Source: Hadesarchaea archaeon
Lineage (GTDB): Archaea; Hadarchaeota; Hadarchaeia; Hadarchaeales; WYZ-LMO6
Direction of reading: 5' to 3'
Assembly (NCBI GenBank): GCA_029259185.1
Contig: JAPDJF010000028.1
Location: 1 to 16,213, forward strand
DNA length: 16,213 nt
Shown: piece after piece, positions 3,315-16,005 of the stretch
How positions within the stretch are numbered: the first letter of the stretch is position 1
Layout: every line of letters begins with the position of its first letter
Made by a program: the position numbers and the translations under genes
The notes under the pieces: generated by a model
Database searches by the model: none
Told to the model about the DNA's origin: nothing
What the model saw: the letters and a program-made list of their open reading frames with translations, nothing else

Positions 3315-5087
3315 ATGAAAAAGATCCTCCTCGTCGGGAACCCGAACGTGGGAAAGAGCGTGATCTTCAACAGACTCTCCGGAGCTAGGTCGGTCGTCTC
3401 TAACTATCCGGGAACCACGGTCGACTTCACCCGAGGATACATGGAGATACATGGAGAAAGATTCGAAATAATAGACTTACCCGGGAGCTTTTCTCTTGAA
3501 CCCAAAGACAAGGCGGAGGAAGTCACCCGCAGGATGTTGAAGGAGAAAAAGCCCCATGCAGTGGTGAGTGTAATAGATGCCACTTCAGTGGAGAGGGGAC
3601 TCTACTTAACATTGGAGCTCCTCGAGGAGGGTTACCCCCTCGTGGTAGCTCTGAACATGTCGGATCTGGCTAGAGACAAAAAGATCGCAGTGGATGGTCA
3701 AAGGCTTGAGGAGATTCTCGGGGTTCCGGTGGTATCCACCGTGGCGACCACGGGGGGAGGTCTAAGAGAGCTCGTGTCTAGGATCCCCGAGGCTAGGAGG
3801 GTGGATGTCACGCAAGTCGTGCAGAGGATCAAGGGCAAGAGGGGTGGCAAGCTCCATACCCCCTTGAGTCCAGATGACAGATGGAATCTGATAGATAAAA
3901 TTTCAGGCCAAGTGGTCTTCAGGGGGAAGTATAAGCACACGCTTAAAGATGTGATTTCTGATCTGAGCGTCCAACCGTTGACCGGTATCCCTCTCGCCAT
4001 AGCAGTACTTTATGGTTTTTGGTCATTTTTCTCAGCATTTGCTGGTTTCTGGACAGATGGGTTCCTGAGCAAACTGTTTGATGAATACTGGTTGCCTTGG
4101 ATTCAAGGTAGTTTCCCGGGTGCTGGGGCAACGATGGCAGCGAGTAGTCCTCTTTATGCTGTTTTGGTCGGGGATCCAGTCGCAAGTAGTTCACTAGAGG
4201 CGATGGGCGTGCTCACGAGCGGCCTATTCGTTCCCTTCGCAATAGTCTTGCCAGCCATCATATCCTTCTACCTCGTTTTGACGGTCTTGGAGGATACGGG
4301 TTACTTGCCTAGATTAGCCGTTATGGTAGACTCAGTTTTCCACAAGATAGGGTTGCATGGTTTCGCGATAGTGCCCACCATCCTTTCTCTCGGGTGCAAT
4401 GTTCCGGCGGTTCTCGCAACTAGGATTCTCGAAACCCGGAAGCAGCGGTTTATGGTAATGACGTTGTTAGGGGTATTCATCCCCTGTGGCGCTCAAATCG
4501 GAGTTATGCGAGATCTCATTCCTGAGTATGTGGGTCTGATTATCGTTTTCTTGTTCTTCGGGTACTTCGTGATGGGGGCCATCTTGAATAAGCTCATCCC
4601 CGGCACATCTCCCGAGATCCTCATGGACGTTCCACCTTATCGAACCCCGAACGAGAGGACGGTGATATCTAAAACTTGGATGCGAGCCTCCCACTTCCTA
4701 GTGGAGGCGATTCCCATTGTGCTCACTGGCGTGCTGCTGGTGAACACGCTTTACTGGCTTGGGGTGATAGACTGGATAGGAAATATCTTCGAACCCATCT
4801 TCGTCACTTGGTTCGGAGTACCGGCTGAGACAGCTAGACCGCTCGTCATGGCTTTCATGAGAAAAGACATGGCGGTGGGGATGCTGGGCGGGATCCCAAT
4901 GAGCACGGGACAACTGATAACTTCTGTAGTACTCGTTTCCCTGTATTTCCCATGTTTGGCCACTTTTTTGATGATCCTGAAGGAGGCCGGGCCAAAAGAT
5001 CTCTTGCGATCCGTGGCCGTGATGGTATTCTCGTTCTTTCTTTTCGGAGGACTTGCCCATTTGATGGTGGCGTTGGGAGGTATTTAA
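3315..5087 (+). CDS. feoB: Ferrous iron transport protein B
   Basis: G1 GNPNVGKS, VSNYPGTTVD, G3 DLPG, G4 NMSD, then membrane gate motifs LEDTGYLPRLA, LGCNVPA, IPCGAQ and YFPCLAT. Confidence 0.97.
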   Translation: MKKILLVGNPNVGKSVIFNRLSGARSVVSNYPGTTVDFTRGYMEIHGERFEIIDLPGSFSLEPKDKAEEVTRRMLKEKKPHAVVSVIDATSVERGLYLTLELLEEGYPLVVALNMSDLARDKKIAVDGQRLEEILGVPVVSTVATTGGGLRELVSRIPEARRVDVTQVVQRIKGKRGGKLHTPLSPDDRWNLIDKISGQVVFRGKYKHTLKDVISDLSVQPLTGIPLAIAVLYGFWSFFSAFAGFWTDGFLSKLFDEYWLPWIQGSFPGAGATMAASSPLYAVLVGDPVASSSLEAMGVLTSGLFVPFAIVLPAIISFYLVLTVLEDTGYLPRLAVMVDSVFHKIGLHGFAIVPTILSLGCNVPAVLATRILETRKQRFMVMTLLGVFIPCGAQIGVMRDLIPEYVGLIIVFLFFGYFVMGAILNKLIPGTSPEILMDVPPYRTPNERTVISKTWMRASHFLVEAIPIVLTGVLLVNTLYWLGVIDWIGNIFEPIFVTWFGVPAETARPLVMAFMRKDMAVGMLGGIPMSTGQLITSVVLVSLYFPCLATFLMILKEAGPKDLLRSVAVMVFSFFLFGGLAHLMVALGGI

Positions 5088-5088
5088 T

Positions 5089-5368
5089 GTCAACTACCCC
5101 TCCCTAAAGGAAGGGACTTGCAGGTGATCATGGTGTTCGAAACTCATCGCCCTCAGACCCGCACGGGGCCGGTTGACGGCGGCCGGTCTAGAGCGAGCCT
5201 GCTCGACTCCTCCGCCCGCTTCGGTCCGGAGCACTATTCGGGCTTCCGGACATCCGGACCACATCCAAGCCGTTTCTCCCCGGGGGATTGCCTTTCAGAG
5301 ATCGCACGCGCATTTTCACCTAAAAATCTCCCAGCCCTTTCGGACGGGGTCTCCTCGCGGTGGTCGAG
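5089..5368 (-). mobile_element. Non-autonomous miniature IS200/IS605 (IS1341/TnpB-derived, PATE-like) element retaining an omegaRNA-like scaffold
   Basis: Minus strand: TAM TCAT (5372-5369), guide tetramer GAGA, left-end hairpin CCCCGTCC-GAAA-GGGCTGGG (5349-5330), relic SD+ATG (AGGTGAAA-ATG 5313, MRVRSLK), GCCGTCAACCGGCC ('AAVNRP'), guide CAAG, right-end hairpin TCCCTTCC-TTTA-GGGAGGGG, terminus TAGTTGAC at 5089. No target-site duplication. Confidence 0.85.
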
Positions 5369-5797
5369 ATGAGCTGGGGTTCGCTCTATTTTGGATTCTT
5401 AGGCGTAGTCTTGTTGGTATTTGGGGCCATCGAGTTCATTACTGGTCTTCCAGGTATTAGAGAGGTCAGCGACCTAGGGTGGCTATCCATTCCTGGAGAT
5501 GCGTGGCGAGGAATCATCACTTTTTTTTCGGGGCTCTTCGTCTTCATGGGTTCAGTTAAATTTCAGAACATCCACGGGCTTGGGGAAGTGGTGCTGGGAC
5601 TCATAATGCTATGGATCGTGGCTGGGTGTGATATCTTCTCGACGGTACTTGAGTCGATTCCTGGAGGGGAGGAAGGCTGGTTCAACACGTTTCAAGGATT
5701 TGTGAGCTCATACACCCCACCTTATGCACCGGAGCTTTGGTTGTTTCCATTTTCGGTTGTGGTGATTTACTTTATACGAAAGAGAGGTGGTGGATAG
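5369..5797 (+). CDS. Hypothetical membrane protein (about 4 TM segments) in the feoB operon
   Basis: Hydrophobic segments LYFGFLGVVLLVFGAIEFI, IITFFSGLFVFMG, VVLGLIMLWIVAG and LWLFPFSVVVIYFI. ATG 5369 is preferred because the GTG at 5360 lies inside the inserted element. Confidence 0.8.
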   Translation: MSWGSLYFGFLGVVLLVFGAIEFITGLPGIREVSDLGWLSIPGDAWRGIITFFSGLFVFMGSVKFQNIHGLGEVVLGLIMLWIVAGCDIFSTVLESIPGGEEGWFNTFQGFVSSYTPPYAPELWLFPFSVVVIYFIRKRGGG

Positions 5798-6113
5798 AGT
5801 GATCAAAAAGATGTTGCTTTTGATGGGGAAAGGTTTAGATGTTGAAGCGATAGCCAAAAAACTCGGGATCGCCCGTGGAACCATCGAGGCGGTTTTGGAA
5901 TCGGCCGTTAGGGAAGGATATCTGGAGAGGGTGAGGCTCCCATCCGGTTGCTCAGGGTGCCCTCTCTACCGGGCATGTCGGGTTGAGGGAGTCCAAAGTG
6001 GCGGTGGGGTGATGTACATCCTCACTCCACGAGGGGAGGAATACATCCTGGAAAGGAGAAAACCTCGAGGCGATGTGAACGATGAGGGACAAACCTATTT
6101 ACCGATTCCCTAA
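5787..6113 (+). CDS. FeoC-like winged-helix protein with a Cys cluster
   Basis: HTH-like VEAIAKKLGIARGTIEAVLESAVREGYLERV followed by C-x2-C-x5-C (GCSGCPLYRAC) and YILTPRG. Located at the end of the feoB operon. Confidence 0.75.
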   Translation: MVDRVIKKMLLLMGKGLDVEAIAKKLGIARGTIEAVLESAVREGYLERVRLPSGCSGCPLYRACRVEGVQSGGGVMYILTPRGEEYILERRKPRGDVNDEGQTYLPIP

Positions 6114-6468: not shown

Positions 6469-7949
<1,481 letters not shown>

Positions 7950-7984
7950 ACGTATTTATTGGTGGGAAGCATCGGACTCTCGGA

Positions 7985-8056
7985 GGGCCCGTAGCTCAGT
8001 GGTAGAGCGTCGGCTTTGCAAGCCGAAGGTCCCGGGTTCGAGTCCCGGCGGGTCCA
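7985..8056 (+). tRNA. tRNA-Ala(UGC) in the 16S-23S spacer
   Basis: Acceptor GGGCCCG/CGGGTCC with G3:U70, anticodon arm TCGGC-TTTGCAA-GCCGA, T-arm CCGGG-TTCGAGT-CCCGG. Confidence 0.98.
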
Positions 8057-10308
8057 CATCAATATGCAACGTGCGGAGTCGGAGGAGTTCCGTGCGTGAA
8101 GGGCGAATAAGTTCATTAGATGACGCCACGCATAGGTTCCCAACGCCGGCCAAGTGGAAACGCTAAGCCACTTGGTGGATGGCTGGGCTCGAGCGCCGAG
8201 GAAGGTCGTGGCAAGCTGCGAAAAGCTCGGGCGAGGCGCATGCAGCCTTAGAACCCGAGATTACCGAATGGGAGTCCTGGAGGAGGGTTTGAACCTCCTC
8301 CGCTCGCGGCAGCGAGCGGGAACCCCGGGAAGTGAAACATCTCAGTACCGGGAGGAAGAGAAAGCAAATGCGATGCCCTCAGTAACGGCGAGTGAAGAGG
8401 GCACAGGGCAAACCGAACCTGGTGGCGAAAGTCACTGGGGATGTGGGGTTGTAGGACTTCCCCCAATTCCTCGCGCGGGAAGCCGAAGTTGCCTGGAATG
8501 GCACGCCGCAGAGGGTGAAAGCCCCGTAGGCGTAACTGCGCAGGATACGAGGGGAAGGATCCTGAGTAGGATGCCTTGGGATTGGCGTCCGAAGCTGGGA
8601 GTCACCAACTCCCAACCCTAAATACGTCTCGAGACCGATAGCGAACGCAGTACCGCGAGGGAAAGCTGAAAAGCACCCCGGAAGGGGGGTGAAAAGAGCC
8701 TGAAACCAAGTGGTGACAGTAGGATACGGCTCGAAAGAGATGATACCTCCCGAAGGAACCCGTCGTGAGACGGTAGTACGAGGGAGGGGAATCGGGGTCG
8801 TATCGTCCGTCTGGAATCACGGGCCAGGGAGTTCATCGTCGTGGCGAGGTTAAGGGGATAAACCCCGGAGCCTCAGCGAAAGCGAAGGTCCGCAACCCGA
8901 AAGGGTGAGGGACTGGGTGTTAAGAGCGCCCGGAGTCACGGCGATGAGACCCGAAACCGGGCGATCTAGTCCGGGGCAGGCTGAAGTCCCGTTTGGGGAT
9001 GGAGGGCCGAACCGGTCTTGACGTGCAATTCGGTCGGATGACCTCGGGCTAGTGGCGAAAGACCCATCAAGCCCGGTGATAGCTGGTTCCTCCCGAAGCT
9101 GGCCGCAGTCAGGCCCGGCGCGAGGTGGCTGGCCGTGTAGAGCACCGATTGCGGGGTGACAGGGGGAAACCCTTGCCCTCGCTGTCGAACTCCGAAGCGA
9201 CCAGCGCCGTAGACCGCCGGAGACGGGGTGCGGGGGGTAAGCTCCCGCTCCGAGAGGGGAACAACCCAGACCGAGGTTAAGGCCCCTAAATGCTGGCTAA
9301 GTGCAGAAATCCAAAGGGCGTCTCCACCCTAAGACAGCGGGGAGGTAGGCTCAGAAGCAGCCACCCTTTAAACAACGCGTAAAAGCGGACCCGTCGAGGG
9401 TGGGGGCACCGAAGATGGACGGGGCTCAAGCCAGCTGCCGAGACCTCGGGGCAGGCGAAGTATAGTAGCCTGATCCGGTAGGGAGGCGTCCCGCGTGGGC
9501 AGAAGCTCGGCCGTGAGGTCGAGTGGACCGCGTGGGAATGAGGATCCTGGTGGTAGTAACAGCGAAGTGGGGTGAGAATCCCCACCACCGAAGGGGCTCG
9601 GGTTCCTCGGCAACGATCGTCAGCCGAGGGTTAGTCGGTCCTGAGGTGGCCCTCAACCAGAGGCCACCGAAAGGGAATCCGGTTAATATTCCGGAACCAC
9701 CTAGGTACCAGCGGCAACGCAGGCTGGACTCCTGACATCTCGGGGTAGACCGAGTGAGGTCGTCGCCTCATCTAACCACTGAAGTCCGGGGAGTTCCGTA
9801 ATGGAGAGAACCGGATGAAAGTGGGAATGGCCTGCCGTTAGGTGGGTTCGGTTGATCCCTGGGATCCGTGAAAAGGGAGTCCGGAAATGGGATCCTAGGT
9901 GTCCGTACCTAGATCCGACACAGGTGCCCCTAGGTGAAAAGCCTAAGGTGTGTCGGGATACACCAGGTCAGGGAATTCGGCAAGTTAGCCCCGTAACTTC
10001 GGGAGAAGGGGTGCCTGCCTTGCGGAAGGCAGGTCGCAGTGACAAGGGGGGACCGACTGTTTAATAAAAACGTAGGTTCCCGCAAGCCCGAAAGGGTGTG
10101 TACGGGAGCTGAATTCTGCCTACAGGCGGTACGTGAAAGCAGGGTTCAACCTGCCGAAGCGCCGCCAATGGGCGGGGGTAACTATAACCCTCGAGTGAGG
10201 GGGTTGTAAAACCCGGCTGTATGCGGGGAAGATCAGAAAAGCGGACTACCCTCTTGGGTAACAAGGTCCGCATTTGATGAGGTCGACCCGCAGGAAACCC
10301 CTGAGAGT

Positions 10309-10323
10309 CAGAAAGCATAAGTA
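10309..10323 (+). promoter_or_regulatory. Putative intron-internal promoter for the homing endonuclease
   Basis: CAGAAAG-CATAAGTA resembles the rRNA promoter GAAAAGT-CTTAAGTA. Standard spacing predicts a TSS at C/G 10345/10346, 8 nt before GTG 10354. Confidence 0.5.
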
Positions 10324-10353
10324 TTTGACAAAGTCCCTCTTAAACGGGGATCG

Positions 10354-10995
10354 GTGTCGCTGGCTTACTTGGTGGGCTTGATGCTTGGCGATGGCGGCGT
10401 TTACGGGGACACGTATACGGTTTTCTGTAGGGACAAGGATGAGGAGTTCGTACGTCGCTGTGCAGAGACGGTCAAAAAAGTGTTCGGAGTTCAACCAAGA
10501 GTCCACAGAGCGGCCCCTAATTGCTGGGCCGTTAGCACGAACCGCCGGGATATCCACCGCTTCATGTGCAAACTCGGATACCCCAAAGGACGGAAGTTGA
10601 CCACAGCAGGAATCCCCTTGACTTTCCTGAAGACTGAGAGTGATAAGATCGATGTTATCAAAGGGCTGTTCGATGCGGAGGGGTACTGTGGGGTCGATAG
10701 ACAGAAGCACGGGGACAAGGTTTACCAATACCCGTACGTCGGCATCGACATGATAGCAAAGCCCATGATCAAAGAGGTGAAAAAAATTCTCGGAGAATTG
10801 GGCATCGGTAGTACCCTTCAAGTCAAGAAGCCCCACGCTTGGGGGAAGCATCCCCAGTGGTCCATAATCATCAAAGGAAAAGAGAGAGTAGCGAAGTTTG
10901 AGAAAATCGTGGGGTTCAGACATCCGGTGAAGTCAGCACGTTTGAGAGAACTCGTTGAGGGGGGATCCCCAGAGACCATACGCCGGGCACCCTGA
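10354..10995 (+). CDS. Double-motif LAGLIDADG homing endonuclease (intron-encoded)
   Basis: Motif 1 LAYLVGLMLGDG, motif 2 VIKGLFDAEG. The C-terminal GSPETIRRAP is read through the ribozyme P7/P3' core, with the stop in P8. Confidence 0.93.
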   Translation: MSLAYLVGLMLGDGGVYGDTYTVFCRDKDEEFVRRCAETVKKVFGVQPRVHRAAPNCWAVSTNRRDIHRFMCKLGYPKGRKLTTAGIPLTFLKTESDKIDVIKGLFDAEGYCGVDRQKHGDKVYQYPYVGIDMIAKPMIKEVKKILGELGIGSTLQVKKPHAWGKHPQWSIIIKGKERVAKFEKIVGFRHPVKSARLRELVEGGSPETIRRAP

Positions 10996-11058
10996 TTAGA
11001 AGGGTGATGATATGGTCCACCCTTTTCGATAGGGAAAAGGGCGCTTAAGGTAGCGTAA

Positions 11059-11090
<32 letters not shown>

Positions 11091-11677
11091 GGAATCAACG
11101 AGTCCCCCACTGTCCCGACCTGGAACCCGGTGAACCCGCTTGCCGGCGAACATGCCGGGGTCCCCCGAAGGGAAACGAAGACCCCGTGGACCTTTACTGC
11201 AGCCTGTCGCTGAAACGCGGTTGCGGGTGCAGAGGGTAGGCGGGAGCCTGCGAAGCCGGATCTCCGGGTCCGGTGGAGGCATCGATGTAACACCGCCCAC
11301 CCCTAACCACGTTTCTAACCCCGCGAGGGGAACACCGACAGGTGGGCAGTTTCGCTGGGGCGGCAGCCCCTCGAAAAGATATCGAGGGGGTCCAAAGGTC
11401 GGCTTAGGTGGGTCAGAACTCCGCCGGTAAGGACAAGGCCAAAAGCCGGCCTGACTGCGTGCTCACTACCAAGGCACGCAGGGGCGAAAGCCGGGCCTAG
11501 CGAACCCAGATGTCCCTCTTGGTGAGGGCTCTGGATGACAGAAAAGGTACCCCGGGGATAACAGAGTGGTCGCGGGCGAGAGTCCATATCGACCCCGCGG
11601 TTTGCTACCTCGATGTCGGTTCTTCCTATCCTGGTCGTGCATAGGCGGCCAAGGGTCGGGTTGTTCGCCCATCAAAA

Positions 11678-11719
<42 letters not shown>

Positions 11720-12063
11720 TGCTATCTTTCGGGGGTGTTCGGTGTCTGAGGGGAAGGTGTCCCTAGTACGAGAGGAACGGGACGCCGGCGCCTCTGGTGT
11801 ACCGGTTGTCCGACAGGGCATCGCCGGGTAGCCACGCGCCAGTCGATAAGGCCTGAAAGCATCTAAGGCCGAAGCGACTCCCGAAAATAGACACCGTGTC
11901 CGGCTGCCTCGCAAGGGGTGGTCGGCGGAGAGCTGGGGCTAGAAGACCCCGTTGATAGGCCGGGGGTGTACGCGCGGAGCTTCGGCGACGCGTTCAGCCC
12001 ACCGGTACTAATCGCTCGAACTCCATTTGGCTGGTTGGGAACCTGTGTGTGGCCTTTTTTTAA

Positions 12064-13887: not shown

Positions 13888-15165
13888 TCAGCTCACCCTT
13901 TCAGCCATCAAGTAAGTGGGTTTTGCATCAACGATTCTTACCTCTACGAGTTCCCCCAACCGTGCCTCTTCCAAGATGGCGAGTTTGTAGTTCGGTAGTC
14001 TGGTGACGTATCTTCCCTTCCATCCCCTCTCCGTGACGAGAGCCTCTCCTCTCCACCCCACATATTCAATGTTTCTCTCGTAAGTGATCCGTCTGCAAAT
14101 TTCACTGAGGATCCTGGACCTCCGAGCAATCTCTCTCCCCTCGAGTTGGGGCATGCCAGCAGCGGGGGTTCCAGGCATCGGGGAGAATCGTGATATGTTC
14201 GTTTTGTCGGGCTTCACACGCTTGATGACTTCTATCGTGCGTTCGAATTCTTCTTCCGTCTCGGTTGGAAAACCGACTATCAAATCGGTGGCAAGGTATA
14301 GATCTCGGAACTTCCGCCTGAAAGATCTCACTATTTCGAGAAAATCCCGCACCGTGTGTCCTCTTCCCATCATTTCGAGTATCCTGTCGTCGCCTGATTG
14401 GAGGGGGAGGTGGAGAAATTTGTACACCTTTTCGTTATCGTACGCTTTGAGCAATCTAGGTAGGATGGGCCTCACATGGGCAGGATTCATCATCCCGATC
14501 CTGATTTTGAAACTTCCTTCTAGGGTGGTCAAGGAGTGGATGAGTTCGGGGAGGGAGCTGCTTATATCTCTCCCGTAAGCGGCGGTGTCTTGGGAGGTTA
14601 GGAGGATCTCCCGATGTCCGGCTCGGATGGCAGCTTTGACTTCGGACACGATATTTTCAGGCTTGAAACTTCTCAGTCCCCCTCGAGCGAGCTTCACGGA
14701 GCAAAAAGTGCAGGCTGAGAGGCATCCCTCCCCTATCTGCACTATGGCACTGACTGCACTCGACCGGAGTTTTGGAAAACACGGCTTTTCGACCTTCTCC
14801 CCGTCCAAGAGTTCGATTCCGGTCTCTCCATCTCTCACCCTCTCCACAATATCCCCGATTTGAGTTAGGGAGCGGCAAGAGAGAACGGCCGCGAAGCTTC
14901 CAGCTTTTCTCGTGGAGTTGAAGTCTATCATCGGGAGACATCCGGTGACGATCACGGGTTTTCCCACCCGGTTCAACTCCTGTAACCTCTTCAGCATTTT
15001 CCTGTAGGTTGTACCTTTCACCGCACATGTGTTGACTATCACCACATCGGCTTCCTTCAGCCCTCGAACGGGTGAATGCCCGCGTTTTGAGAGGATTCCG
15101 AGCATCAGCTCGCTGTCTCCTCGGTTAGCAGTGCACCCATAGGTTTCACAGTACACGTGCATCAT
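13888..15165 (-). CDS. Radical-SAM tRNA methylthiotransferase, archaeal MtaB/CDKAL1-like
   Basis: UPF0004 domain (ETYGCTAN, VNTCAV, VTGCL), CxxxCxxC motif GCLSACTFC, FLHLPLQSG, TDLIVGFPTET and a C-terminal TRAM-like domain. Start is 15165 or 15162; the ORF extends to 15189. Confidence 0.92.
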   Translation of the reverse strand: MMHVYCETYGCTANRGDSELMLGILSKRGHSPVRGLKEADVVIVNTCAVKGTTYRKMLKRLQELNRVGKPVIVTGCLPMIDFNSTRKAGSFAAVLSCRSLTQIGDIVERVRDGETGIELLDGEKVEKPCFPKLRSSAVSAIVQIGEGCLSACTFCSVKLARGGLRSFKPENIVSEVKAAIRAGHREILLTSQDTAAYGRDISSSLPELIHSLTTLEGSFKIRIGMMNPAHVRPILPRLLKAYDNEKVYKFLHLPLQSGDDRILEMMGRGHTVRDFLEIVRSFRRKFRDLYLATDLIVGFPTETEEEFERTIEVIKRVKPDKTNISRFSPMPGTPAAGMPQLEGREIARRSRILSEICRRITYERNIEYVGWRGEALVTERGWKGRYVTRLPNYKLAILEEARLGELVEVRIVDAKPTYLMAERVS

Positions 15166-15252
15166 CAATTTTTTATGCATAGGAAACAAAAACCTTCAAA
15201 TTGACCATCGAAACCGTAAAAAAGATCGATGTCAGAATAAAAGGGTTTAGAT

Positions 15253-16005
15253 ATGATCCAGATAACCTTAATCCAGCTAGATAACTATGGTCCTTGGACG
15301 GTAAGTCCCAAGCCGAGACCAGAGGCCGAACTCCAGATATTGCAGTCCGAAATTTTTTCTGAAGTGGAGAGGGAGTTCAGAAAGCGCCACGGTCTGGTAT
15401 TTCAAACCCGATACGACAACATGTTAGCCGTTACAAACGGTGTTTCGCTTGGGGATCACCAGAAGATCTTGAAGAGAATCAACCGGAAGTTTCCAGTAAC
15501 GGTGAGTATGGGTGTTGGGGTGGCCCGGACAGCTTATGATGCACAGAAAAAAGCGACGATGTTCCTCCAGCAGGCGGGAAGTAGTAGGTCTCCAGATCGA
15601 ACGGGAATGTTAGTGGGGAAAGCATTGAGATCCATTAGCGATGGGTGGGTTCAGCTGACCCACATAGATATAAACCACTCCACAGCTCTGACGGATACGG
15701 AGCCCATTTACGATACACACTTCTACATCCAACAAACGTATCTTATGCTCATGAAATTCCTTCTCAAGAAAAAATCACTCGTGTTTTATACAGGAGGAGA
15801 TAATTTTATGGCACCTTCAAATGGGCTAAGCGTTGCCGATTTCTCTAAGGTCTTCAGCAGGATCAGGAAAGAGCTCGATGTTGGTCTCAAAGCCGGAGTG
15901 GGTCTCGCACGCACGGCCGAGCGGGCGGCCCATCTCGCGAGTGAGGGTCTCCACGAAATTAGAGAGGGAAAGGTTGGAGCTTCGATAGTCTTCAAGAGAG
16001 ACTAA
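15253..16005 (+). CDS. gch3: Archaeal GTP cyclohydrolase III
   Basis: MIQITLIQLDNYGPWT...E..LQ.LQ, RYDNMLAVTNG, HIDIN and FYTGGDNFMAPSNG are characteristic of the MJ0145 family. Confidence 0.94.
   Translation: MIQITLIQLDNYGPWTVSPKPRPEAELQILQSEIFSEVEREFRKRHGLVFQTRYDNMLAVTNGVSLGDHQKILKRINRKFPVTVSMGVGVARTAYDAQKKATMFLQQAGSSRSPDRTGMLVGKALRSISDGWVQLTHIDINHSTALTDTEPIYDTHFYIQQTYLMLMKFLLKKKSLVFYTGGDNFMAPSNGLSVADFSKVFSRIRKELDVGLKAGVGLARTAERAAHLASEGLHEIREGKVGASIVFKRD

Follow-up and report, generated by a model that had tools for sequence, protein, structure and literature searches.

A protein-free insertion element downstream of feoB

The window analysed here is a stretch of 16,213 nucleotides from a Hadesarchaea archaeon (contig JAPDJF010000028.1), whose archaeal genome comprises 1.27 Mb in 54 contigs. 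On its plus strand lie feoB (3315-5087; Pfam FeoB_N, Gate and FeoB_C), which ends GGAGGTATTTAA, and the gene of a 142-amino-acid membrane protein (5369-5797), which opens ATGAGC. The gap between the two is 281 nt: one T at 5088, followed by 280 bp (5089-5368) whose sequence identifies them as a protein-free deletion derivative of a TnpB-type IS200/IS605 element, that is, a palindrome-associated transposable element (PATE). The original prediction, made from the letters of the window, had proposed such an element here, inserted at the start codon of the downstream gene.

A BLAST search with 5076-5372 against the organism's own genome returns 27 matches. Two more full-length copies of the mini-element lie at C15:26849-27137 and C10:31173-31459, with 89-91% identity to the window copy (C1, C2, C15 and so on denote contigs of this organism's own assembly). 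In the alignment of the copies, homology begins exactly at GTCAAC (5089) and stops exactly at ...GGTCGAG (5368). The boundaries are set at these positions because the homology of the other copies stops there. The mini copies differ among themselves by 3-nt and 12-nt indels, and 12 nt found in the C15 and C10 copies are absent from the left end of the window copy. This extra segment (CTCCGCAGTTCC region; C15:26849-26905 against window 5325-5368) is also missing from a remnant at C2:59674. None of the 26 TnpB zinc-ribbon (PF07282) matches in the genome lies inside 5089-5368. The ends are common to TnpB-bearing IS200/IS605 elements in the same genome and therefore mark a mini-element of the PATE type, so that the boundaries and the family named by the original prediction both stand. 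A search of Rfam with 5000-5450, at E values up to 10, finds no family, and a riboswitch or other structured-RNA identity of the 280 bp is ruled out because the same 280 bp precede unrelated genes. Matches to the right end only, in seven places, were rejected as elements, being truncated remnants without a left end. Remnants of the left-end side only lie at C2:59674-59806, C7:45907-45947 and C20:9495-9529.

Judged from its ends, the top strand of this non-autonomous element is the minus strand of the window, with the left end at 5368, the target TCAT and the terminal tetramer TGAC. The right end (5089-5121, minus) consists of the terminal tetramer TGAC (5089-5092, GTCA on the plus strand), a hairpin (5097-5116) and the foot CAAG (5117-5120). 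The interior (5122-5290, minus) is homologous to the 3' non-coding, omegaRNA side of TnpB elements and would represent an omegaRNA scaffold. An A/T box, TAAAAAT (5321-5327, strand unassigned), lies 42-48 nt upstream of the ATG at 5369 and is present in all three mini copies. The left end (5330-5368, minus) comprises a hairpin (5330-5349), the foot GAGA (5350-5353, TCTC on the plus strand) and a 15-nt linker (5354-5368), which contains on the plus strand a Shine-Dalgarno (SD)-like motif, GGTGGT (5359-5364), whose GGTG begins at -10 from ATG 5369. The target motif TCAT (transposon-adjacent motif, TAM; 5369-5372, minus) reads ATGA on the plus strand and covers the start codon of the next gene together with the first base of its codon 2. 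This coincidence of target and start had been claimed from the window, and both the conserved flank of the other copies and the empty sites agree with it.

The insertion is precise and leaves no duplication

The feoB junction is empty in 7/7 loci, namely six relatives of the same order and a paralogue on C3. In these loci, 0-4 nt separate the feoB stop from the ATG of the membrane-protein gene, or the two overlap as ATGA; one example reads ggggatttaatATGAGG. The empty site within the genome belongs to a second pair of feoB and membrane-protein genes (C3:~15146-15946) and reads TAA-TGTG-ATGAAG; this pair shares ~66% DNA identity and 51% protein identity with the pair in the window. The filled site reads TAA-T-[280 bp]-ATGAGC, with no duplicated base. 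Since the junction is uninterrupted in the relatives and the paralogue, the insertion was exact, between TAAT and ATGAGC, without duplication. According to the same six orthologues and the paralogue, ATG 5369 is the native start codon, and the empty site that the original prediction expected in related genomes is present there. Two other insertions of the family behave alike. The aroE-pdh junction is uninterrupted in 9/9 relatives, where by frame arithmetic aroE ends on the TGA of an NTGA overlap, and the start of the topoisomerase gene is uninterrupted in 10/10 relatives, whose orthologues share the start codon. No target duplication is seen at the feoB (7/7), aroE-pdh (9/9) or topoisomerase (10/10) site.

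No genome of the same family matches the window locus at the DNA level. Contigs from three public sequencing runs of two studies contain the joint between feoB and the element (4700-5181) and that between the element and the next gene (5343-5900). No joint skipping the element was found in those contigs; as rare variants are lost in contigs, the population may still include an empty allele.

At the aroE-pdh insertion (C29:5551-7312), the reconstructed empty site has aroE running in frame into pdh without a stop. Over its last ~7 codons, the aroE gene there is shifted by 1 nt from the register of the relatives, and its present end lies 12 residues into the element.

Both ends follow the guide-pairing rules of the family

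The element has no terminal inverted repeats and carries imperfect subterminal hairpins at both ends, as a PATE should. Both hairpins fold better on the minus than on the plus strand (-5.7 against -3.3 kcal/mol for 5097-5116; -5.3 against -4.6 kcal/mol for 5330-5349). As single sequences they do not beat shuffled ones (z = -0.89 and +0.22). Scanning species-representative genomes for the right-end motif GT[C/G]AACTACCCnnCCCTAAAGGA yielded more than 112 loci in bacteria and archaea, and 82 distinct right ends from many genomes were used for covariation. Two variable positions of the right-end stem are exactly compensatory in 52/82 of them, and one constant C.A on the plus strand corresponds to G.T on the minus strand. 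The original prediction had noted that most stem mismatches become G:T wobbles on the minus strand; the left-end stem of the window copy carries one true mismatch.

The terminal tetramer of the right end covaries with its foot tetramer: GTC occurs with CTTG 40 times and GTG with CTTC 15 times, giving 55 concordant ends and 1 discordant. Among 39 left ends, TCAT goes with a foot tetramer beginning with G in 19/20 cases and TTAT with one beginning with A in 17/17, which makes 36/37 concordant at left-end position 2. Position 4 is mixed, with 3 discordant copies in this genome. The guide/cleavage pairing of the IS608 type, which the original prediction had read from the foot tetramers of the window, is supported at both ends by this covariation, from which the pairing register (positions 1-2 crossed, 4-4) was inferred rather than from a structure. 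At the target, only 4 nt are conserved, and the fifth base and the opposite flank vary. ATGA flanks 8/10 left ends of the mini type in this genome and GTGA one more.

Elements with the right-end motif occur in Methanothrix, Methanoculleus, Deinococcales, Bacteriovoracaceae, Parachlamydiaceae, Marinobacter and further taxa. Another target class has the flank ATAAA (TAM TTAT) and includes a PATE of ~250 bp with at least 10 copies in one Bacteriovoracaceae genome.

Most mini-type copies adjoin gene starts

This genome contains 17 left ends, 10 of the mini type and 7 of full-length insertion sequences (IS). At 8/10 mini-type ends, the element is followed by an ATG or GTG that opens an open reading frame (ORF) of 142-692 amino acids. 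Six of these ORFs match a Pfam family from residues 1-16 onward (metallo-beta-lactamase, ParA/CbiA, Tsr3, Toprim/topoisomerase IA, phosphoribosyltransferase and prephenate dehydrogenase). With the window gene, whose start is verified by orthologues, verified gene starts adjoin 7/10 mini-type ends. The eighth, C7:45947, was dropped as a gene start; its 148-amino-acid ORF has no Pfam family and an enoyl-CoA hydratase gene lies on the opposite strand. The ends at C1:61617 and C20:9529 are not at genes. The C2:59674 remnant (133 bp), which keeps the A/T box and GGTGGT, still adjoins the start of the metallo-beta-lactamase-fold gene. The count of copies at ATGA sites that the original prediction called for is therefore in its favour.

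As the null, we used our own crude gene caller (1209 genes, 85% coverage). Gene starts make up 310/10,089 ATGA sites (3.1%) and 19% of the non-coding ATGA sites, and 7/10 at starts has P = 3e-9 against all ATGA sites and P = 6e-4 against the non-coding ones. Overlaps of 4 nt are the commonest junction of same-strand gene pairs here (87/795), and 51 of them are ATGA.

The 7 full-length IS copies are near-identical, have GTGAA as flank in every case and adjoin no verified start (at most 1/7). The copy on C53 neighbours the stop of a PIN-domain gene encoded on the opposite strand, the copy on C6 is followed by a 125-amino-acid ORF without a Pfam family, and the remaining ones by ORFs of 5-63 amino acids. 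If 70% were expected at starts, 0-1/7 would have P = 0.004.

In other genomes, left ends could be located in 19 loci of the right-end motif scan. ATGA or GTGA flanks 14/19, and 11 of these 14 open ORFs of at least 43 amino acids. A Pfam family, mostly near the N-terminus, was found in 8/10 of those ORFs tested (TrmB, response regulator, DUF1249, LptM and zinc protease among them). In addition, the whole genomes behind five loci were searched with 120 nt of the Marinobacter left end, without flank, and four matched. In these four bacterial genomes, 30/30 fetched ends have ATGA at the junction; 25 open ORFs of at least 157 amino acids, one opens the 43-amino-acid LptM lipoprotein gene and 4 open nothing. 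Real genes are thus opened at 26/30 ends, and 25 of the 26 carry a Pfam family: 5 come from the cross-genome set above, with which this one overlaps by five loci, one was not put to Pfam, and all 20 newly tested ORFs have a match (SmpB, ribose-5-phosphate isomerase, a TPP enzyme from residue 1, an epimerase from residue 4, an EngB-type GTPase and others). When this genome and the four bacterial genomes are pooled, 33/40 ends adjoin real gene starts. Many of the bacterial copies are 92-100% identical over the 120-nt query and are therefore young.

Two wider searches gave no further copies. In an order-level search, a degenerate left-end pattern matched coding sequence by chance, its reversed control being equally frequent, and a metagenome scan with the same loose 18-nt pattern returned 120 loci, none related to the element by BLAST. 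In ten Marinobacter loci with IscB elements (L342, L346, L343, L350, L354, L347, L351, L357, L358 and L370), the left end itself ends in ATG. That ATG is in frame and directly before the host ATG, so that the host protein could start MM....

The left end provides an SD-like motif and an A/T box

The 3' end of the 16S rRNA is GATCACCTCCT. Against the consensus derived from it, GCGGTGGTC matches GAGGTGATC at 7/9 positions and one mismatch is a G.U, which bears out the likeness reported for the end of the element. Removal of the element gives GGAGGT-ATTTAAT-ATG, in which the native SD, GGAGGT, lies in the feoB tail (5076-5081), 7 nt before the ATG of the empty site. Excision on paper thus restores a well-placed SD, as the original prediction had stated, at the native start codon. 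A survey covered 1074 gene starts, which were picked by the longest ATG-initiated frame without regard to the SD. GGAGG is most frequent there at -13 to -11, and GGTG at -10 and -9 (48 and 47 occurrences against a background of ~7; as many as ~7 of the 48 at -10 may come from element copies). At the filled site, the left end places GGTG exactly at -10, the modal position of the genome. The full-length IS, whose linker is otherwise different, has GGTG at -12 and -9. A replacement SD supplied by the element is therefore a plausible and reasonable reading for this genome, not a family trait. The motif may be incidental, or required by TnpA.

The A/T box is most simply the TATA box of the lost tnpB, that is, a candidate promoter of tnpB and the omegaRNA; in the 916-bp copies described below, its counterpart, TTTTAA, precedes the tnpB ATG by 31 nt on the minus strand. 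That it might also serve as an outward promoter for the downstream gene is speculation. Three copies (C15, C2:62641 and C26) split a TATA-like box from the start codon, and one of the genes concerned is the only type IA topoisomerase. Intact genes follow the copies, among them the single type IA topoisomerase gene and the single Tsr3 gene of the genome. Since these single-copy genes are intact, they are presumably expressed in the filled state.

Upstream genes are touched as well. At C10:31441-31459, a radical-SAM/SPASM gene has lost to the insertion the TGA stop of its ATGA overlap. It runs 5 extra residues into the right end and ends RSTTPP, its stop being the TAA of the hairpin loop. This TAA lies in the invariant CCCTAAAGG of the right-end family motif.

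TnpB relatives and transposase supply

Two copies of 916 bp share the ends of the mini-element (C29:6397-7312 and C2:61726-62641). In minus orientation, they contain a truncated ORF resembling the first ~270 residues of TnpB, whose match to Pfam OrfB_IS605 (E 3e-5) is below the curated cut-off. The right-hand 125-190 nt of the mini-element align with the right-end-proximal region (~125 nt) of the 916-bp TnpB copies, the full-length IS and remnants. In the consensus fold, an internal GTCAAC pairs with the terminal GTTGAC, and 6/28 pairs show double changes. The single-sequence fold of this omegaRNA side has z = -1.13. The GTTGAC partner of the right-end terminus is present in 23/33 GTC-class ends and the matching GTTCAC in 2/20 GTG-class ends. 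A long-range helix was rejected as a general feature of the family on account of the latter figure. The evidence for a functional omegaRNA scaffold is thin.

A full-length IS with the same ends accounts for breaks of the assembly at 15 contig ends, 127 nt into the repeat. The right end is found in this way at 8 contig ends (C1, C4, C5, C20, C26, C31, C35 and C43), and the related left end at 6 (C15, C19, C20, C31, C32 and C53), as well as at C6:658. These contig-end repeats mark young full-length IS collapsed by the assembler. The interior of the IS is mostly missing from the 54 contigs, where ~600 nt inward of the left end (on C6) and 95 nt inward of the right end survive. Matches to Y1 TnpA (PF01797) lie at C9:42044-42385, C1:115323-115517, C34:7642-7713 and C53:1116-1187, all damaged or partial: one with an internal TAA, one of half length and two fragments of 24 residues at contig ends. 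An intact TnpA copy may be located in the unassembled repeats.

In other hosts, the Marinobacter elements encode IscB (RRXRR and HNH) read toward the host gene, the Methanoculleus element encodes TnpB read away from the host gene, like the 916-bp copies here, and the measured Thiodiazotropha copies (213-613 bp) are PATE-like.

Discussion

Taken as a whole, the locus is probably best explained by a PATE that inserted at a start codon, with a distribution of copies shaped by survival and an SD now supplied by the element. The PATE is a deletion derivative that retains both ends, the left one together with the putative tnpB promoter box, and the region on the omegaRNA side. A Y1 TnpA acting in trans would have inserted it as single-stranded DNA, 3' of TCAT on the minus strand. 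Because this tetramer is complementary to ATGA, the element landed exactly at the start codon, between the feoB stop (TAA plus T) and the next ATG, without duplication. The comparison of copies and empty sites shows these steps of origin and precise insertion. Elements of the N|ATGA lineage sit mainly at start codons and at stop/start overlaps of the form ATGA, where the 4-nt target occurs, and copies elsewhere would have been lost. At feoB, the insertion moved the native SD 280 nt away, and the left end offers GGTG at -10 and the A/T box at -48 to -42. The downstream gene would then be translated from the element-derived SD, its transcript being either a continuation of that of feoB or one initiated within the element. 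The original prediction is confirmed in what it observed and partly supported in how it read it. Its notion that the family targets start codons is one of two readings of the clustering of copies there (7/10 here, 26/30 elsewhere), and the full-length copies at GTGAA favour the other, survival. The outward-facing SD that it proposed as a family trait is not one, and the downstream feo genes that it thought might be retuned do not exist; only the immediately downstream gene of the uncharacterised membrane protein is affected.

Several points weigh against this explanation. The gene caller behind the null is crude, and if true neutral sites were half as many, P would be ~0.03. The excess at bacterial starts is large (P = 3e-11 against an expected 25%, computed for 25/30). 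In the C15 and C10 copies, the 12-nt segment can pair with the GGTGG region in a predicted fold, and the left hairpin of the window copy is damaged. Left ends of related elements in Methanoculleus, Marinobacter and Thiodiazotropha show no SD-like motif. None of the 54 assembled contigs contains an intact TnpA, the best match having an internal stop, and no RNA run is listed among the public sequencing runs that contain the locus.

The mini-element may instead persist as an omegaRNA cassette, with TnpB acting in trans and using the flank beyond the right end as guide to cut empty sites and so restore the copy; starts would be favoured by their strain-conserved flanks. The alignment of the right-hand 125-190 nt with the omegaRNA side of TnpB copies and the many TnpB genes of the genome are consistent with this, and PATEs have been described by Meers et al. 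(PMC10055086) as often encoding omegaRNAs acted on in trans. The absence of an Rfam match, the ordinary fold and the modest within-genome covariation speak against it, as do the several copies that keep just the left half (C2:59674, C7 and C20) or just the right half, and we regard it as somewhat doubtful.

Insertion might also be directed actively, either by the transposase or by the state of the DNA, such as accessible, unstructured single strands at translation starts, with selection playing a minor part. Occupancy of 7/10 against 19% of non-coding sites in this genome, and of 26/30 starts in the four bacterial genomes, would follow directly, and the young bacterial copies precede housekeeping genes (smpB, rpiA and the GTPase gene). 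Loss of coding insertions on its own hardly accounts for the bacterial excess, and survival alone may therefore be insufficient. On the other hand, just 4 target nucleotides are conserved, with a variable fifth base and opposite flank, and the full-length IS, which has the same hairpins and the GTGAA flank, is at starts in 0-1/7 cases. The latter is more in keeping with target sequence combined with survival than with a physical bias towards start regions. Moreover, judging from work on IS608, no IS200/IS605 mechanism is known to read more than the TAM. Target sequence combined with loss of harmful copies is therefore preferred over active targeting, which we consider unlikely as the main cause; the bacterial excess keeps it as a rival.

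That the element is a neutral passenger, its likeness to an SD and a promoter being incidental and the gene being expressed by read-through from feoB with weak or SD-independent initiation, would agree with the intact housekeeping genes behind related elements that lack an SD-like linker and with the chance of an SD 4-mer at the modal position (~2% per linker by estimate, not negligible with many families examined), but appears improbable because both element types here keep GGTG at -10 or -9 while the remaining linker differs, and because read-through alone would impose leaders of 289-916 nt on the three genes split from their TATA-like box.

The family can be set beside known systems. IS200/IS605 elements encode the TnpB and IscB nucleases, the ancestors of Cas12 and Cas9. 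IS608 of Helicobacter pylori has subterminal hairpins whose 5'-foot tetramers pair with the TAM at the left end and with the terminal tetramer at the right end. Its hairpin and foot logic and its left-end linker of ~19 nt resemble those described here, and its TAM differs (TTAC against TCAT). The Correia elements of Neisseria are likewise short, non-autonomous miniature inverted-repeat transposable elements whose end may supply expression signals to a neighbour; unlike the present element, they have DDE-type ends and a target duplication, and no tie to the start codon.

PATEs were described in Haloquadratum walsbyi by Dyall-Smith et al. in 2011 (PMC3119063). According to the main text of that paper, they are protein-free, have neither terminal inverted repeats nor target duplication, share near-terminal palindromes with IS605-type (TnpB-only) elements and arise by internal deletion. 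The window element differs from those described there in its host lineage and in keeping ~190 nt of the right-end side, and the term "start codon" has no occurrence in the main text. The N|ATGA target of IS605B and ISC transposons was reported by Kapitonov, Makarova and Koonin in 2016 (PMC4810608). In their main text, insertion is immediately 5' of ATGA, with a GT... terminus and no duplication, all of which is found here as well. TnpB and IscB elements share ends, and Marinobacter sp. ELB17, re-examined here, is among their genomes. The same text, supplements aside, does not report occupied ATGA sites as gene starts or a protein-free derivative with an SD-like end, and the word "codon" is absent from it. 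For ISGst5 (IscB) of Geobacillus stearothermophilus, the portion of Meers et al. 2023 (PMC10055086) considered here gives TTCAT as TAM and TTCAC as transposon-encoded motif (TEM). This is the same 5-nt TAM as in most copies here (ATGAA flank), with the same guide-pairing logic, and PATE-like minimal elements are present in that genome too. In the present genome, TnpB is the protein partner, and its strand points away from the host gene. For IscB elements, that portion reports an orientation bias relative to upstream genes, not adjacency to start codons. No paper linking the N|ATGA target to start codons was found in open-access text, supplements aside. PATEs and the N|ATGA target are already published; what is apparently unreported is that, in one archaeon and four bacteria, the great majority of the ATGA sites occupied by copies are real gene starts.

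A target that coincides with the start codon, together with intact housekeeping genes behind it, suggests a safe-harbour strategy for coexistence with compact genomes that relies on translational punctuation rather than on a long recognition site. We tentatively propose that the IS200/IS605 lineage with the N|ATGA target, whether encoding TnpB, IscB or no protein, occupies such a niche between genes, the right end closing the upstream frame and the left end restarting the downstream gene. In the frame of an ATGA overlap, the right end brings the TAA of the invariant hairpin loop after 5 extra residues, as seen at C10. If this is true, the element would be adapted to live inside operons without killing them. 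If the left end supplies an SD or a promoter, such elements may rewire the expression of genes internal to operons, here the gene after feoB, near an iron-dependent repressor; they could also split or uncouple genes. For annotation, "intergenic" gaps of 280 bp in operons and 5-12 extra residues of upstream proteins may mark such insertions.

Neighbouring genes and other features of the window

The iron-dependent repressor is of the DtxR type and is encoded on the minus strand (2541-2966). A Pfam search with the 142-amino-acid protein (5369-5797) finds no family, and the Protein Atlas places it among uncharacterised archaeal membrane proteins near the MJ0565 domain, which is a lead only. It is followed by the gene of a small winged-helix protein (5799-6110) and by an archaeal rRNA operon (6469-12029). 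The 23S rRNA gene (8151-12029) is 3879 nt long against a model of 2987 positions and contains a 204-amino-acid ORF (10381-10992) with a LAGLIDADG_3 domain. The excess length and this ORF therefore point to an insert that is probably an rRNA intron with a homing endonuclease.

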